Source: Escherichia coli (GTDB lineage Bacteria; Pseudomonadota; Gammaproteobacteria; Enterobacterales; Enterobacteriaceae). From it: a stretch of 64,000 nucleotides of DNA. Location of the stretch: NCBI RefSeq assembly GCF_041886205.1, contig NZ_CP169029.1. One strand, 5' to 3'. The translations under genes and the position numbers were made by a program. Numbering within the stretch: position 1 is the stretch's first letter; each line of letters begins with the position of its first letter. Below the pieces are notes generated by a model. That model saw only the letters and a program-made list of their open reading frames with translations. It was not told the DNA's origin and made no database searches. Shown one piece after another: positions 34,254 to 40,879 of this stretch.

Positions 34254-35879
34254 TTACACACACACTCCCCCCGTCGCCCGCAGCAATAAATCATTCTGGA
34301 TCTGCTCTGACAACCGTACGCCGCCGCGCGTATCTAACATCACCTGACACCACGCCTGCGCCATTGGCGGAGAGGCATATTTCAACATTTGCGCACCGCA
34401 GCCCAGCAGGAATAGCTGATGAGTAATCTCTCGCCCCAGTTCTTCAGCTGGCTTACGCAGCTGCTGCTGTAAACGACGAACCGCGCGATCAAAATAGCGA
34501 TCCTGCCCTTTCACTTCCACAAATGCTTCCGACAATAAGTCGTATACGCCCGCTTGCTTATTGAGAACGCGCAGCACATCCAGGCACATAATGTTGCCGG
34601 AACCTTCCCAAATACTGTTTACCGGCATCTCCCGGTAAAGCCGCGGCAGCTCGCTCTCCTCGCAATAACCAATGCCGCCCAGCACCTCCATCGCTTCGGC
34701 CACAAACGGCATACCTCGTTTGCAGATCACAAATTTTGCCGCAGGTGTAAATAAACGCGCCCACAGAGCTTCTTTGGCATCGGCGCGCCGGTCCCACGCT
34801 CGCGCAAGACGAAACAGCAACGCCGTTTGCCCTTCAAGCTGAAGTGCCATGCGACTTAAGACATGACGCATAAGGGGCTGTTGGATCAATGGATTACCAA
34901 AAACATGGCGTTGATGTGCATGATAAATCGCCAGCGAAAATGCACGGCGCATCATGGCATGGCTACCCAGGGCGCAATCAAAACGCGTCATCCCCCCCAT
35001 TTTCAGGATCAGACGAATTCCTTCCCCTTCCTGCCCCAATAACCAGCCAATGGCATCCTGAAACTCCACTTCACAACTGGCGTTAGAGCGATTACCCAGC
35101 TTATCTTTCAGCCGTTCGAGGCGAATCGCGTTGCGTTGCCCGTCAGGCAAAAAGCGCGGCACAAAAAAGCAGGACAAACCGCCCGCGGTCTGCGCCAGCA
35201 CCAGATGCGCATCGCTTTGCGGAACCGAGAAAAACCATTTATGCCCCACCAGCCGATAAGAGCCATCCTCCAGACGCTCTGCGCGGGTGGTGTTGCTCAT
35301 GACATCGGAACCGCCCTGCTTTTCCGTCATTCCCATGCCAATCAACAAACCGCGTTTTTGCCCACCTGGCAATAAGTGAGAATCGTAGCGATCGCTCAAC
35401 AGCGGCGTGGTCCAGTCCTGAAACGGCGTGGGTAACATCTGTAACAACAATGGCGTGGCGGCAAAGGTCATCGTTATTGGACATAACGACCCCGCCTCAA
35501 CCTGTGCGTGCAACATAAAACGCGCCGCGCGCGCCACAAATGCGCCGGAGCGAGCGTCTTCTTCCCAGGCAAGATTGTGCACCCGATTGGTACATAGCGC
35601 CTGCATCAGCAGGTGCCAGGCGGGGTGAAAACGCACATCGTCCAGACGGCGTCCTTGCGCATCGTAGCGCAATAATTCGGGCGGATTCACATTCGCCAGC
35701 CGCCCCAGTTCAAGGGATTCAGCCGTTCCTAACTGCTGACCAATACTGGCTAGAAAATCGCTATCCCAGCCAGCTCCTTCACGCGTTACCGCTTCGCAAA
35801 GCGCGCCATCAGACAGGTATAAGTTGCTGTTATTTAATGGTATAGGTTGATTAAAAACGGTGTGAGTTTGCCAGTGCAC
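34254..35879 (-). CDS. aidB: adaptive-response acyl-CoA dehydrogenase-like protein AidB (apparent GTG start)
   Basis: ORF 34254..35897; VHWQTHTVFNQPIPLNNSNLYLSDGALCEAV... 541 aa from GTG. Confidence 0.9.
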   Translation of the reverse strand: MHWQTHTVFNQPIPLNNSNLYLSDGALCEAVTREGAGWDSDFLASIGQQLGTAESLELGRLANVNPPELLRYDAQGRRLDDVRFHPAWHLLMQALCTNRVHNLAWEEDARSGAFVARAARFMLHAQVEAGSLCPITMTFAATPLLLQMLPTPFQDWTTPLLSDRYDSHLLPGGQKRGLLIGMGMTEKQGGSDVMSNTTRAERLEDGSYRLVGHKWFFSVPQSDAHLVLAQTAGGLSCFFVPRFLPDGQRNAIRLERLKDKLGNRSNASCEVEFQDAIGWLLGQEGEGIRLILKMGGMTRFDCALGSHAMMRRAFSLAIYHAHQRHVFGNPLIQQPLMRHVLSRMALQLEGQTALLFRLARAWDRRADAKEALWARLFTPAAKFVICKRGMPFVAEAMEVLGGIGYCEESELPRLYREMPVNSIWEGSGNIMCLDVLRVLNKQAGVYDLLSEAFVEVKGQDRYFDRAVRRLQQQLRKPAEELGREITHQLFLLGCGAQMLKYASPPMAQAWCQVMLDTRGGVRLSEQIQNDLLLRATGGVCV

Positions 35880-35962
35880 TGTGTCTCCCTCCATCAATGG
35901 CAGTCACCATTAGTATGGTCACTGCCATGGATTCATGACAGAAAGAGATTGCTAAAACATTC

Positions 35963-37126
35963 TTATCCAGCAATGTAATGCGGAACGAAACGTGAGCTGT
36001 CTTTGGTGATCAGCGTGTTATCTTCACGGATCCCCATTCCGCACGCTTCATCATCGACAATCCAGCTACCGATGAGTGTGTAGCTATCGCCAAATCGCGG
36101 CAGAGGTTGAAACGCCTGGTAGATCATCGGTTCATCGGCGTAATCACCATCAGCGTGGTCAACGACGTTATTCTGACCGTCGAAAATGGTGACGTTGCCG
36201 CCTTCGCGCGAGTAGATCGGTTTACGCACATAGCTTTCGCCAGCGGCAATCTGCGATTTTTCACCCTCAAACCAGGATGCAAGAAGGTTAGGATGACCAG
36301 GAAAGAAGCGCCAAAGCAGCGGCATTAGCCCTTTATTACTCAAGATACTTTTCCATAACGGCTCCACCCATTGCTCGCGACGCTTGCGCAGCAGCGGACC
36401 GTTATCGTCACGCATCATCCACTCCAGCGGATACAGCTTAAATGCACGCTGGATGACATTATCATCAAGATCGGTCAGTACGCCGCCGACGCCCAAACCG
36501 AGATCTTCAATGTAGATAAACCGCGACTCCTGCCCTGCCTGCTGGGCGCAGTCCTGCAAGTACAGCACGGTGCTCCTGTCTTCATCGGTGTCCTGACAGC
36601 AGCAAAAATAAAACGGTTCCCGACTGTAAAGCTCACTAAAGCGCGAAATCAGGCGTTCCTGAATGGCATTGTACTGATCGGCATCACGCGGAATAATGCC
36701 GCTGCGCCGGGCATCCTCCAGCCACAACCACTGGAAATAAGCCGACTCATACAACGAGGTCGGCGTATCAGCGTTGTACTCCAGCAACTTAACCGGTGCA
36801 TTGCCACACCAGGCAAAATCCATACGGCCATACAGCGAAGGATCGCGTGCGCGCCAGCTTTCGGCGATCACATCCCAGTACAACGACGGGATCGCCAGTT
36901 GCGTCAGGATCTCTTCGTCTTTAACCGCGCGATCCACCACCTCAAGACACATCTGATGCAGTTCCGCAGTCGGTTTTTCGATCTGCTCTTCAATCTGGCG
37001 CAGAGTAAAACGGTAAGCCCGACTCTCGTCCCAATAGATTTCATTGTCGATGATATGAAAGTCGAAACCGTTGTCAGCGGCGATTTGGTCCAGATCCCGC
37101 CGCACAGGAACGTTGTGTCTCAGCAT
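35963..37126 (-). CDS. yjfC: YjfC, glutathionylspermidine synthase-like ATP-grasp protein
   Basis: ORF 35963..37141, MLRHNVPVRRDLDQIAADNGFDFHIID (387 aa). Confidence 0.88.
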   Translation of the reverse strand: MLRHNVPVRRDLDQIAADNGFDFHIIDNEIYWDESRAYRFTLRQIEEQIEKPTAELHQMCLEVVDRAVKDEEILTQLAIPSLYWDVIAESWRARDPSLYGRMDFAWCGNAPVKLLEYNADTPTSLYESAYFQWLWLEDARRSGIIPRDADQYNAIQERLISRFSELYSREPFYFCCCQDTDEDRSTVLYLQDCAQQAGQESRFIYIEDLGLGVGGVLTDLDDNVIQRAFKLYPLEWMMRDDNGPLLRKRREQWVEPLWKSILSNKGLMPLLWRFFPGHPNLLASWFEGEKSQIAAGESYVRKPIYSREGGNVTIFDGQNNVVDHADGDYADEPMIYQAFQPLPRFGDSYTLIGSWIVDDEACGMGIREDNTLITKDSSRFVPHYIAG

Positions 37127-37128
37127 GA

Positions 37129-37767
37129 TTAGCCTCCCCAATGCCCACGGGCGCTGGAAGAACGACCATAGCCGCCGCGCGAAACGGTCGACGCTTTTCT
37201 GGTGGTAAAGCCGCCTGAAGAGTAAGACTCTTTTTTGCCAGAACCGGAGCGCCAGGAGTAATCACCAGAAGTGTTGCGCCAGACGGGGCGCGAAGCAAAA
37301 GAGGAACCGCCGCTGTTATAAACAAACTGCTCATCGCGATCTTTACGAATAACCCGGCTTAACAAAAATCCAGAAACGACCGGGATCCAACTCTGTTCAA
37401 CGTTGTCGTAGTAACAATTTTCATACTTAGACTGACAATTCTGCTGAGTCATATTCTTCGGAACATCGGCATAAAATGCTGCTTTGGCGTTGTTCCAGCC
37501 ACGCGCGCAAATGTCGGCATTATTACCGTCATCAATACAATCCTGCACAGTCGAGTAAAACGTTCCGTCGCCGTCGTTATCGACATCGCTACTTTCACTC
37601 CATCCTTTGACTATTAAAAAAGCGGCACCGCCCATTAGCGCCAACGTTAAGTATTTTTGTGCGTAGCGATTGCGACGCGGTTCAAAAGGATTATTCGGTC
37701 TACCAATGCGACTGATCGCTCCGTGACCAATTTTACTGTTATTTCTTGATTTGCGTTTTCTGGCCAT
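37129..37767 (-). CDS. yjfM: YjfM (DUF1190 protein)
   Basis: 212-aa ORF MARKRKSRNNSKIGHGAISRIGRPNNPFEP. Confidence 0.85.
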   Translation of the reverse strand: MARKRKSRNNSKIGHGAISRIGRPNNPFEPRRNRYAQKYLTLALMGGAAFLIVKGWSESSDVDNDGDGTFYSTVQDCIDDGNNADICARGWNNAKAAFYADVPKNMTQQNCQSKYENCYYDNVEQSWIPVVSGFLLSRVIRKDRDEQFVYNSGGSSFASRPVWRNTSGDYSWRSGSGKKESYSSGGFTTRKASTVSRGGYGRSSSARGHWGG

Positions 37768-37776
37768 GATCGTCCA

Positions 37777-38175
37777 TTACCATGTCATACAAGCTGCGTT
37801 AAAAATACCGCCAGCCAGCGCGGCGGTTCCCATAAACATTCCTGCTGCGGTATTGTGATTAATAATTTTTTCGCTTAATGCGGGCATATAAAGTCTGACA
37901 CCAGCAAAAACGAGTAACTGAATCACCAGTGCAATCCCGCCCCAGGCGAAATAGTCTGGAATACTCACCGCATTGATTGCCGCACTGGATAAGGGGATCA
38001 CGTAACCCAACAATGTACCGCTGAATGCTAGTGACGCCGCGGTATTATTGTTTTTGATTAATTGCCATTCGTTGTGCGGTGTAATTTTGGAGTAGATAAA
38101 CAGAAAAATAATCACCATAGCCACGCCAATAAAAAAATAGGCGCTAAAGGCAAGAAGTGAATCCAGTATATGCAT
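37777..38175 (-). CDS. yjfL: YjfL (DUF350 inner membrane protein)
   Basis: ORF 37777..38256, start at MHILDSLLAFSAYFFIGVAMVIIFLFIYSK (132 aa). Confidence 0.85.
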   Translation of the reverse strand: MHILDSLLAFSAYFFIGVAMVIIFLFIYSKITPHNEWQLIKNNNTAASLAFSGTLLGYVIPLSSAAINAVSIPDYFAWGGIALVIQLLVFAGVRLYMPALSEKIINHNTAAGMFMGTAALAGGIFNAACMTW

Positions 38176-38192
38176 TGTAAACGTCCTTGTAA

Positions 38193-38852
38193 TTAACCAA
38201 TAATATGAAGTGATGTCAGCGGAATATCGACACCCAACGCGCGCGAAAATAACCACTCTGGCTCGCCGAGATCGTTAAAAGATTCCTCACCATTTAACAG
38301 CAAATATTCGTAAGTATCTTCGGTCACTTGCCGCTGGTAGCCCATGGTAAAATTATGGACCTCCCATTTGGCATGGTTTTGATTTTCTACTTTTTCCAGC
38401 ATGTAGACGGGTTCGATATTTCCCGGTTCTTCGCTGTTAAAAAATCGCTGCCAGCGTTTTCCCTGCCAGTTTAAGGTCATTGCCCCCATCGCTTTAGCGT
38501 TGATCGCCTCGCGCCAGTGACTCTCTTTACTGATACCGTAGCTCTCTTCATAGACAAAGAGCTTGATATCATCAATGTCATCAATATTTTCGCCGCCGGT
38601 GGTATTGATTTGCAGAAACTCATCGCCTGAAGTGTAGTAGCGGAAAATCTGGCTACCGCCGCCCAGATCGATGCGACTGACAGCGGCTACCGTAAATTCC
38701 TCACCCGGCAGCGCAATCAGCAATTCATCTTCCAGCAAACGAAACGCTAACGTGTCAAGCGTAAAGCCACTATTGAGATGAAGTCCCAGCGGACCGCGAG
38801 CGATAGCAGGCTTATTATCCTTGCCAAACAGACGCTGGAAAAAACCAGACAT
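38193..38852 (-). CDS. yjfK: YjfK (DUF2491 protein)
   Basis: 219-aa ORF MSGFFQRLFGKDNKPAIARGPLGLHLNSGFTLD. Confidence 0.85.
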   Translation of the reverse strand: MSGFFQRLFGKDNKPAIARGPLGLHLNSGFTLDTLAFRLLEDELLIALPGEEFTVAAVSRIDLGGGSQIFRYYTSGDEFLQINTTGGENIDDIDDIKLFVYEESYGISKESHWREAINAKAMGAMTLNWQGKRWQRFFNSEEPGNIEPVYMLEKVENQNHAKWEVHNFTMGYQRQVTEDTYEYLLLNGEESFNDLGEPEWLFSRALGVDIPLTSLHIIG

Positions 38853-38902
38853 ATTTTATCCTTAAAATAGTTGCCAGCCTTGCAGTGAGGCTGGCAAAAA
38901 AA

Positions 38903-39601
38903 TTACTCGCCCTGTTGGCGTTGCAGTCTTGCTAATACATCCTGGGCGCTACTTTTATTGCTACCGCCAATTCCGGCTTCCGCCAGCTTTTCGTCAAGGT
39001 CGCGACCGTCTGCGACTTTCTCCAACTGTGCGGCAGCATCCAGGCGAGCCTGACGTTCGGCCTGACGCGTTTGCAGGCGTTTTAAGGATTCTGCCGCTGT
39101 CGAAACGCTGGAAGATGCGCCAACGGTAGAGGTTGTTACAGCCTGTTGTGCACGCTGCATGGCTTCAGTGGCTTTAACGACTTCCATTTGCTGCTCAAAC
39201 TGAGCGATACGCTGCGCTGTCGCTGTAACTGCTTTTTCCACGCCATCACGGGAGACTTCCAGATTCGACAACACTTGCTCTTCAGCGGTAATGAGATTCT
39301 CAAGGCGCGCGATTTCTTCAGCAACTTCGTTAATCAACGACGGATTAACGTTCTTGCTTAACGCTTCCAGCGCACGGGCTTCCAGACTGGCTTTGCGCTC
39401 ACGTAAATCTTTCAGCTTATCGTGACTTAATTTCACCCGCGCCAGCAGATCAACGCGAGATTTTCCGGCTTTATCGAGTTCAGCTTTAGCGTCACGAATA
39501 TGCTGTTCCAGCATGCGCACGCCCTGGGTTTCTTCAATGGATTCTTCCGCCTGGGAGATAAACGATTTCCCCAGCGTAAATAAACTTTTTAAAATTCCCA
39601 T
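38903..39601 (-). CDS. yjfJ: YjfJ, PspA/IM30-family coiled-coil protein
   Basis: 232-aa ORF MGILKSLFTLGKSFISQAEESIEETQGVRMLEQHIRDAKAELDKAGKS. Confidence 0.88.
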   Translation of the reverse strand: MGILKSLFTLGKSFISQAEESIEETQGVRMLEQHIRDAKAELDKAGKSRVDLLARVKLSHDKLKDLRERKASLEARALEALSKNVNPSLINEVAEEIARLENLITAEEQVLSNLEVSRDGVEKAVTATAQRIAQFEQQMEVVKATEAMQRAQQAVTTSTVGASSSVSTAAESLKRLQTRQAERQARLDAAAQLEKVADGRDLDEKLAEAGIGGSNKSSAQDVLARLQRQQGE

Positions 39602-39619
39602 AAATACCCGTCCTTGTAA

Positions 39620-40021
39620 TTAGTGTGAATATTCTTCTGTAATTTCAGCCAGATCCAATGCGTTATCTACCAGCGAGGTTATCTCAAGCAGGATATCTTC
39701 AAGAGAAGATTTAAGCGATAACGCCCCGAAAACAATGTAATACTCTTCCTGTTGTACGCTGGAGATCCCTACCGATGACAACGGCATCATCTTCTGATTT
39801 CTTAATAAGAAGGTATTAAATTCATCTGGATTGCTGATACTACTCACCGGACAAATAAAGGTTTCGATAATCATTTGGCGGGAAGTAAAAAGAATATTGA
39901 TTTGCAAATCGCCATAATCATTCATTTTAATAATTAATGCGTTCTCGCTATTTGTTACATCAATATTTTGTTCAGGTACAGTTTGCAGCGCTGTCGCTAG
40001 CGCCAACGGATTCCATGTCAT
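39620..40021 (-). CDS. yjfI: YjfI (DUF2170 protein)
   Basis: 133-aa ORF MTWNPLALATALQTVPEQNIDVTNSENALIIKMNDYGDLQINILF. Confidence 0.85.
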   Translation of the reverse strand: MTWNPLALATALQTVPEQNIDVTNSENALIIKMNDYGDLQINILFTSRQMIIETFICPVSSISNPDEFNTFLLRNQKMMPLSSVGISSVQQEEYYIVFGALSLKSSLEDILLEITSLVDNALDLAEITEEYSH

Positions 40022-40100
40022 ATATTATTCCATATAGATTAAGTTTAAATATTAATAAAATGAATATTTGCAATACGTAATTATCTTACCAGCTATAGAC

Positions 40101-40127
40101 AAAAAAAAACCATCCAAATCTGGATGG
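40101..40127 (-). terminator. Rho-independent terminator downstream of rlmB
   Basis: ccatcca aatc tggatgg hairpin followed on minus strand by T9. Confidence 0.8.
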
Positions 40128-40147
40128 CTTTTCATAATTCTGAGAAA

Positions 40148-40879
40148 TTAGCTGCGCTGGCGCACCGCTTCAAATAAGCAAATTCCGGTCGCAACCGAAA
40201 CGTTCAGGGAAGAAACGCTTCCAGCCATCGGGATGCTGATCAACTCATCGCAATGTTCACGAGTCAGGCGACGCATACCTTCACCTTCCGCACCCATCAC
40301 CAGCGCCAGGCGTCCGGTCATTTTGCTCTGATAGAGTGTATGATCCGCCTCGCCTGCCGTACCGACGATCCAGATATTCTCTTCCTGCAACATACGCATG
40401 GTGCGCGCAAGGTTAGTCACCCGAATCAGCGGAACGCTTTCTGCCGCGCCGCAGGCTACTTTTTTCGCCGTAGCGTTGAGCTGTGCGGAGCGATCTTTCG
40501 GCACAATCACCGCATGAACGCCTGCGGCGTCCGCACTACGCAGGCACGCGCCGAGGTTGTGCGGATCGGTTACGCCGTCGAGGATCAGCAGGAACGGTTG
40601 ATCGAGCGAAGCGATCAGATCCGGCAGATCGTTTTCCTGATACTGACGTCCTGGCTTCACGCGGGCGATAATGCCCTGATGCACGGCACCGTCGCTTTTC
40701 TCGTCGAGATATTGGCGGTTTGCCAACTGGATAACCACGCCCTGAGACTCAAGGGCGTGAATCAGCGGTAACAGACGTTTATCTTCACGGCCTTTTAAAA
40801 TAAAGACTTCCTGAAAACGTTCAGGGGCGCGCTCCAGCAGGGCCTGCACTGCGTGGATGCCGTAAATCATTTCGCTCAT
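40148..40879 (-). CDS. rlmB: 23S rRNA (guanosine2251-2'-O)-methyltransferase RlmB
   Basis: 243-aa [33 protein letters not shown], SpoU methylase. Confidence 0.92.

Follow-up and report, generated by a model that had tools for sequence, protein, structure and literature searches.

The yjfIJKLMC cluster of Escherichia coli as a conserved, putative composite envelope module with a candidate ligase partner in the YjfM tail

The six genes yjfI, yjfJ, yjfK, yjfL, yjfM and yjfC occupy positions 35963-40021 of the window, the 64,000-nucleotide stretch of Escherichia coli contig NZ_CP169029.1 (assembly GCF_041886205.1) analysed here. With moderate confidence, we favour the reading that they form a conserved composite envelope or envelope-stress module, built from three sub-modules and not as one indivisible operon, in which the C-terminal tail of YjfM is the partner of the ligase YjfC. 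The reading draws on gene and domain identities, gene linkage and the co-occurrence of tail and ligase, all observed in this analysis, and on an in-vitro activity and a heat phenotype taken from the literature. The open reading frame (ORF) listing and the RefSeq annotation of a 100% identical genome both put the six genes on the minus strand; together with the tail motif they are as follows.

yjfI, 39620-40021, minus strand: 133 amino acids, DUF2170; CesT/Tir-like small chaperone or regulator, paired with YjfJ
yjfJ, 38903-39601, minus strand: 232 amino acids, divergent PspA/IM30 (bacterial ESCRT-III) coiled-coil protein
yjfK, 38193-38852, minus strand: 219 amino acids, DUF2491; beta-rich, without signal peptide, predicted cytoplasmic
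yjfL, 37777-38175, minus strand: 132 amino acids, DUF350; inner-membrane protein with four hydrophobic segments
yjfM, 37129-37767, minus strand: 212 amino acids, DUF1190; membrane-anchored, paralogue of YgiB
yjfC, 35963-37126, minus strand: 387 amino acids, ATP-grasp acid-amine ligase of the glutathionylspermidine-synthetase family; annotated peptide--spermidine ligase
YjfM C-terminal tail motif codons, 37132-37191, minus strand: S193-T-V-S-R-G-G-Y-G-R-S-S-S-A-R-G-H-W-G-G212

Matches of the six proteins to Pfam profiles were far beyond chance (DUF2170 in YjfI, E = 1.5e-44; PspA_IM30 in YjfJ, 5.3e-58; DUF2491 in YjfK, 3.1e-71; DUF350 in YjfL, 1.3e-33; DUF1190 in YjfM, 1.1e-17; GSP_synth in YjfC, 9.9e-149). 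RefSeq starts were adopted throughout; the longest ORFs begin further upstream for yjfL (38256) and yjfC (37141). Intergenic gaps measure 18, 50, 17, 9 and 2 nt in the order yjfI to yjfC, the upstream neighbours on that strand are nsrR, rnr and rlmB, the last of them 126 nt from yjfI, and aidB follows yjfC at a distance of 83 nt. Positions 35500-40500 are 100% identical to E. coli strain wlxctx60, and this 5-kb stretch was matched in 5425 of 5426 complete E. coli genomes, with at least 80% coverage in 5327. A first-pass annotation of the window, made by a model from the letters and their ORFs, had described six tightly spaced co-directional genes with DUF2170, PspA/IM30, DUF2491, DUF1190 and ATP-grasp domains; the genes are borne out, now with their strand, the domains are upheld by Pfam, which assigns its small membrane protein to DUF350, and the measured gaps confirm the tight spacing and replace its range of 1-50 bp. 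It rightly called the sequence not novel, the cluster being already known and annotated in nearly every complete genome and belonging to a published operon class, and its suggestion of an envelope-modification or stress system is in general accord with a published comparative-genomic survey (Ravi et al. 2024, PMC11237479). Its view of the function as largely unassigned stands in that the literature gave no defined function for the operon, and falls short in that structures and in-vitro ligase activity of YjfC and its counterpart YgiC, a structure of the YjfI homologue BacA and a heat phenotype had already been reported, so that the biochemical parts are better known than was assumed.

We assessed linkage of the six families by scanning one genome per GTDB species with a profile of 37 YjfC-family representatives, keeping the best 80 loci and annotating them by ORF calling and iterative hidden Markov model (HMM) searches seeded by the six E. 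coli proteins. Word-indexed homologue searches for YjfM and YjfK reached Enterobacterales only, and the wider diversity comes from this locus scan. All six families co-occurred in at least 20 further loci of Alpha- and Gammaproteobacteria, where the layout (genes given by their last letter) was IJKLMC in Rudaea as in E. coli, I-J-K-M-C in Dyella (L undetected by the HMM annotation), J'I' divergent from KLMC in Rhizobium, IJCKLM in Novispirillum, and M'L'K' divergent from IJC in 14 loci (Caulobacter, Brevundimonas, Sphingomonas, Pseudovibrio and Acidiferrobacteraceae). I-J and K-L-M were the unbroken units among loci and the ligase gene C joined either one; the DUF350 family accounted for 61 ORFs across ligase loci. 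Because linkage outlasts rearrangement, there is good evidence that the six genes are functionally coupled, as the three sub-modules I-J, K-L-M and C.

The persistence of linkage through rearrangement therefore disfavours the view that these are neighbours and not one system, with yjfIJ the tail of nsrR-rnr-rlmB, yjfKL a separate pair and yjfMC a duplicate of the ygiBC pair that landed here. We consider this view distinctly unlikely. It is consistent with a published nsrR-rnr-rlmB-yjfIJ unit and the description of yjfIJ as an operon, with a hairpin in the yjfJ-yjfK gap, with an iModulon that excludes yjfMC and with MC and LMC loci lacking I, J and K, but accident would not be expected to bring six families together in at least four arrangements in distant Alpha- and Gammaproteobacteria, and an independent survey found the same class (Ravi et al. 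2024, PMC11237479). Two C-terminal features were seen in passing among homologues from I-J-C loci: YjfI homologues of Alphaproteobacteria (for example locus L052, 6780-7220) end in Ala-Ala in 13 of 21 cases, and YjfK homologues have a conserved C-terminal EFRA.

Transcription divides the cluster as well, and the proposal of the first-pass annotation that the six genes make one operon proved too simple in view of the published unit, the gap hairpin, the composition of the iModulon and the split layouts elsewhere. The published transcription unit is nsrR-rnr-rlmB-yjfIJ, the literature on the Pseudomonas aeruginosa bac cluster terms yjfIJ an operon, and an RpoD-holoenzyme site (TTAATA-17-TGGAAT) has been published between rlmB and yjfI. 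Three further features may bear on expression.

yjfI leader and promoter region, 40022-40100, minus strand: 79 nt, AT-rich, from sequence
rlmB intrinsic terminator hairpin, 40101-40133, minus strand: T9 tract at 40101-40109, 80 nt upstream of yjfI, predicted by a terminator scan
yjfJ-yjfK gap hairpin, 38871-38897, minus strand: 10-bp, GC-rich, followed by CTATTTTAAG; terminator-like in the scan

The predicted fold of the rlmB terminator has an energy of -18.1 kcal/mol (z = -4.7) and that of the gap hairpin, which occupies much of the 50-nt yjfJ-yjfK gap, -17.1 kcal/mol (z = -3.0). The gap hairpin is a candidate partial terminator or attenuator, or a stabiliser of the yjfIJ 3' end, and could part yjfIJ from yjfKLMC. 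Sigma-70-type scans of the region upstream of yjfI found no strong consensus promoter.

Published expression data show yjfIJKL, without yjfMC, as the YjfJ iModulon, silent in all sampled conditions except in heat-evolved strains; yjfIJKL was strongly up in six of six strains evolved at 45 °C, and higher expression led to better growth at 42-45 °C (PMC12492005). Plasmid-borne yjfIJKL raised the growth rate more than 1.21-fold at 42 °C. The change reported to activate yjfIJKL in heat-evolved strains is a (T)9->8 deletion at MG1655 position 4410053, intergenic +47/-80 (mutation table of PMC12492005), and we found that it shortens the U-tract (window 40101-40109) of the intrinsic terminator predicted after rlmB. 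The published interpretation as a promoter mutation is not obviously right from the sequence, because no scanned promoter straddles the T run or is re-spaced by it. We had considered that the deletion makes or re-spaces a sigma-70 promoter, and a simple scan of the wild-type and T8 sequences gave no candidate across the run. Alternatives are that it permits read-through from nsrR-rnr-rlmB or relieves silencing of the AT-rich leader. The study that reported the heat phenotype explains it by pores, with YjfJ as a large ring, YjfK as a primitive outer-membrane beta-barrel porin and YjfL as a hexameric channel, and with the benefit arising from membrane protein crowding or protein efflux; the case is made from structure-prediction arguments and the phenotype, the ring in the YjfJ homology model being an assumption, and we regard it as highly improbable (PMC12492005).

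YjfC scored 496 bits against GSP_synth (cut-off 29.3) and is identical to the sequence of PDB 7UK6/7UK7 (E = 1e-271); residues invariant across its family include R101, D103, E116, N118, K265, G309 and H383. Crystal structures exist for YjfC (7UK6/7UK7) and YgiC (7UK8/7UKA), both carry the product name peptide--spermidine ligase in MG1655 RefSeq, and ATP-dependent peptide-spermidine ligase activity in vitro is reported for both (Pederick et al. 2023, as cited in later papers). Glutathionylspermidine synthetase activity was reported absent in YgiC in a study that also examined YjfC (Sui 2012, as cited in later papers), and the citing literature states that both enzymes lack it. YjfC shares the pre-ATP-grasp plus ATP-grasp fold with Gss/GspS and trypanothione synthetase, but Gss has an N-terminal amidase domain that YjfC (387 amino acids) lacks, the PDB alignments beginning at Gss residue 253, and YjfC is reported not to make glutathionylspermidine. 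Its score against the bifunctional Gss equivalog NF007801 was 165.5 bits (cut-off 882), the best stretch covering only profile positions 487-613 of 619. YjfC requires ATP and has no signal peptide.

The founding enzymes of the YjfC family amidate the C-terminal glycine carboxylate of glutathione with spermidine, the chemistry of EC 6.3.1.8, and the YjfM tail is therefore an obvious candidate partner or substrate of the ligase. As a peptide the tail, with RGGYG and a GG end, reads ASTVSRGGYGRSSSARGHWGG; full-length enterobacterial YjfM proteins all end ...TVSRGGYGRSSSARG(H/S)WGG, the K-12 YgiB tail (TVTRGGFG...SMGG) is similar, and a Gly-Gly end was present in 39 of 51 DUF1190 homologues. Within the last 45 residues, the pattern R-[GNQSV]-G-[FYW]-G occurred in 72 of 7653 ORFs among ligase loci, and in 71 of 82 loci an ORF with the tail motif lay no more than 4.5 kb from the ligase gene. 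Bradyrhizobium and relatives (loci L016-L072) have minimal DUF1190-like genes of 125-145 codons between the DUF350 and ligase genes (for example L017, 7215-7643), and their products consist of a membrane anchor, a Ser-rich spacer, an SRGGFG...GG tail (SRGGFGSFAHAFGFGGG) and little else. The DUF1190 HMM missed these genes, and their loci were first scored as 'L-C'. The DUF1190 tail is likely to be the cognate partner of the ligase. YjfI, YjfJ, YjfK and YjfL were considered as other candidate substrates, and none of their C-termini had a conserved Gly-Gly end.

We modelled a fusion of YjfC-(GGGGS)5-YjfM(141-212) with AlphaFold2 (AF2), using an alignment of 26 rows paired by locus and 20 unpaired ligases. 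The predicted local distance difference test (pLDDT) exceeded 90 nearly throughout YjfC and was 27-46 in the linker and most of the tail, and it rose to 91 at YjfM 189-198 (TRKASTVSRG) and 75 at 199-208 (GYGRSSSARG), with a short strand at 194-197 and a short helix at 202-205. Since this confidence lies within an otherwise disordered tail, the model suggests that the motif packs against YjfC, and we take it as support, not proof.

The ligase may instead serve polyamine or redox homeostasis by making a free small peptidyl-spermidine or by acting on some other soluble acid and amine; YjfM would then be a periplasmic metal- or ligand-binding lipoprotein and not a substrate, and the PspA pair would sense or buffer the membrane consequences. 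We hold this to be possible and rate it as the less probable account. It is essentially the hypothesis of Ravi et al. 2024 (PMC11237479), who envisage a PspA-based system monitoring polyamine levels or a polyamine-type modification and label the DUF1190 protein a metal-chelating lipoprotein. The reported in-vitro activity is on peptides, with no physiological substrate on record, the family founders act on glutathione, a small tripeptide, the nearest other structures are Gss and trypanothione synthetase, and DUF1190 proteins have a lipobox and an acidic Cys-rich region that indicate the periplasm, all of which would fit. A soluble product leaves unexplained, however, why 71 of 82 loci, those of the minimal proteins included, pair the ligase with an SRGGFG...GG tail, and why AF2 reaches pLDDT 91 at the motif in the ligase fusion.

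YjfM and other DUF1190 proteins begin with a basic stretch and a hydrophobic anchor, which in the wider set usually has a canonical lipobox; an acidic Cys-rich region comes next, then a conserved segment of moderate hydrophobicity, and last a basic tail rich in Gly, Ser and Arg that contains SRGGFG. Mean net charge is -6.2 in the acidic region and +8.2 in the tail. We weighed a topology in which YjfM has a second transmembrane helix, formed by its second hydrophobic segment, and keeps its tail in the cytoplasm. It fits this charge asymmetry (-6.2 before, +8.2 after the segment), and we rejected it as the likelier topology given a Hessa-type dG of +6.5 to +11.6 kcal/mol and the lack of the segment in minimal homologues.

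The other proteins place the cluster near known membrane-stress systems. YjfI scored 151.6 bits against the DUF2170 profile (cut-off 27) and matched PDB 8Q8O, the P. aeruginosa DUF2170 protein BacA, over residues 3-128 (E = 1.1e-16). In structure BacA is similar to CesT and ExsC, chaperones of type-III secretion, and the CesT/Tir-like assignment of YjfI comes from the literature (Ravi et al. 2024, PMC11237479, and the BacA work). YjfI reached 93.7 bits against the BacA biofilm regulator equivalog NF050185 (cut-off 300), and by sequence it is a homologue of BacA and not its equivalent. P. aeruginosa bacABCD (PA3732-PA3729) begins, like yjfIJ, with a DUF2170 gene (BacA) followed by PspA_IM30 (BacB), but its remaining genes differ, and the cluster is not reported to include a ligase, DUF350, DUF1190 or DUF2491 gene. 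For YjfL, hydrophobicity minima near residues 7, 49, 75 and 113 mark four segments, with conserved polar residues inside them.

YjfJ scored 196.7 bits against PspA_IM30 (cut-off 33.9) over residues 2-232 of 232; among PDB sequences it had no match at E <= 0.01, and pairwise BLASTP gave no significant match to a single PspA sequence. PspFABCDE and LiaIH likewise have an effector of the PspA/IM30 family. YjfJ differs from the classical Psp arrangement in that its neighbours are rlmB, yjfI and yjfK, PspF, PspB and PspC families are absent from the six proteins, its partner is a CesT-like protein, pairwise similarity to PspA is not detectable and it is reported not to form rings. Its start, MGILKSLFTLGKSF, resembles the N-terminal amphipathic helix of PspA.

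The closest published description is an operon class in which a CesT/Tir-PspA dyad is joined by an ATP-grasp ligase and by DUF350, DUF1190 and DUF2491 proteins (Ravi et al. 2024, mSystems 9:e00847-23, PMC11237479). All six families are found in the E. coli cluster, and YjfI and YjfL are named there as type members; the class also includes a ligand-gated potassium channel, which is absent between rlmB and aidB in E. coli. That paper reports comparative genomics and no experiments, and the DUF1190 tail is not among its topics. Within E. coli, tolC-ygiB-ygiC holds the paralogous pair, YgiB being a DUF1190 protein with a lipobox and both ligases sharing a product name; for YgiC, identity was 54% to P0235, the representative taken to be YgiC, with a match to PDB 7UK8 at 2e-129. 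Unlike yjfMC, ygiBC has no PspA, CesT-like, DUF2491 or DUF350 genes alongside. The two pairs have a joint phenotype, the growth defect of a tolC null being worse when ygiBC and yjfMC are both lost, and ygiB is Cpx-regulated in Citrobacter.

Under the composite-module reading, YjfI would act as a CesT-like chaperone or regulator that holds YjfJ in check, and YjfJ, as a divergent PspA/ESCRT-III protein, would bind and stabilise the cytoplasmic face of the inner membrane. Cytoplasmic, beta-rich YjfK, the four-helix membrane protein YjfL and anchored YjfM may assemble into a complex forming a membrane-spanning or periplasmic arm. YjfC would activate a peptide carboxylate with ATP in the cytoplasm and amidate it with spermidine, with the conserved C-terminal tail of YjfM as its cognate partner and possibly its substrate. 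Membrane or heat stress would thereby couple a PspA-type scaffold to a polycationic spermidine conjugate acting at the envelope. The cluster, which belongs to the E. coli 'unknome' and borders on well-studied genes, brings PspA/ESCRT-III membrane repair together with polyamine conjugation, subjects that seldom touch.

Several points weigh against this reading. No clean-deletion phenotype is on record, and a 2025 review still lists the physiological substrate of the ligases as not known. The ligase pair M-C may be independent of the PspA pair, because the iModulon excludes yjfMC and M-C pairs occur alone (ygiBC and the MC and LMC loci), and the reduced LMC and MC loci do exist without I, J and K. 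A review singles out YjfJ as the one member of the PspA family reported not to form large ring complexes. In the AF2 fusion, judged by pLDDT alone and without a scrambled control, the last five residues of YjfM (GHWGG) fell below 50, so that the terminal carboxylate is not confidently placed. YgiB and most non-enterobacterial DUF1190 proteins have a canonical lipobox, and, because of this lipobox, the acidic region that follows it, the single-anchor minimal homologues and the cost of inserting the second segment, the DUF1190 tail is most likely periplasmic, beyond the reach of a cytoplasmic ATP-dependent enzyme unless it is modified before export.

A stricter form of the tail proposal is that YjfC and YgiC are protein-tail ligases, the SRGGFG of YjfM or YgiB docking on the enzyme and the Gly-Gly carboxylate being amidated with spermidine in the cytoplasm before export. 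We think this unlikely, mainly because the predicted topology requires modification before export. Were it true, a periplasmic membrane-anchored protein would carry a polycationic C-terminal spermidine, a post-translational modification not described before, and polyamines would be physically tied to the envelope and to the PspA-like response of YjfJ. The logic would be akin to that of Pup-PafA or of RiPP leader recognition. In Pup-PafA, a carboxylate-amine ligase receives a disordered polypeptide whose C-terminus contains Gly-Gly, and it activates the terminal carboxylate of that polypeptide with ATP. The resemblance to the putative YjfM-tail/YjfC pair is an analogy only, PafA belonging to a different superfamily and its acceptor being a protein lysine. 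The question of what YjfC and YgiC target in the cell was raised in 2012, in a comparison with glutathionylspermidine synthetase, and sharpened by the activity report of 2023, and the tail motif offers a concrete candidate. Should that candidate be wrong, the cluster is an ordinary, annotated, near-universal E. coli locus.

The N-terminal part of YjfM varied within the species. The lipobox pattern L-[ASTVI]-[GAS]-C had no match in YjfM, the strain analysed here reading L51-I-V-K-G-W56 without Cys, and K-12 and most strains read V-L-K-G-C, in which Lys at -2 is atypical. The Trp56 codon (37600-37602) takes the place of the sole candidate lipobox Cys of K-12 and most strains, and Trp is also found in a 97%-identical representative. 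It falls in a divergence hot spot of yjfM at 37560-37660 (101 bp, codons ~37-69), where identity was at least 95% in ~1290, 90-95% in 3498 and 80-90% in 618 of 5406 genomes; the whole cluster, by contrast, is 95-99% identical in nearly all genomes. About a quarter of E. coli strains would, on these alleles, make a YjfM that cannot be lipidated. The hydrophobic segment is Met-rich in many DUF1190 homologues (loci L010-L029, MPLMMGYMMGSM; YgiB at L083, 2245-2916, FWMPLMAGYMMGRLMGG), which is reminiscent of Cu(I)-binding Met motifs, and a preprint notes slight copper sensitivity of a ygiB mutant.

Further searches were uninformative, with no Rfam match in the locus, no function gained for the six proteins from NCBIfam and, among PADLOC defence models, only a weak and not meaningful coiled-coil match of YjfJ to JetC (E = 5e-4, 16 bits). 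In the interval from the yjfC stop codon to the start of aidB, an inverted repeat at 35897-35928 (ATGGCAGTGACCAT-acta-ATGGTGACTGCCAT, 13 of 14 positions matching) sits 18-49 nt upstream of the annotated aidB GTG (35879); lacking a T tail, it resembles a site for protein binding more than a terminator.

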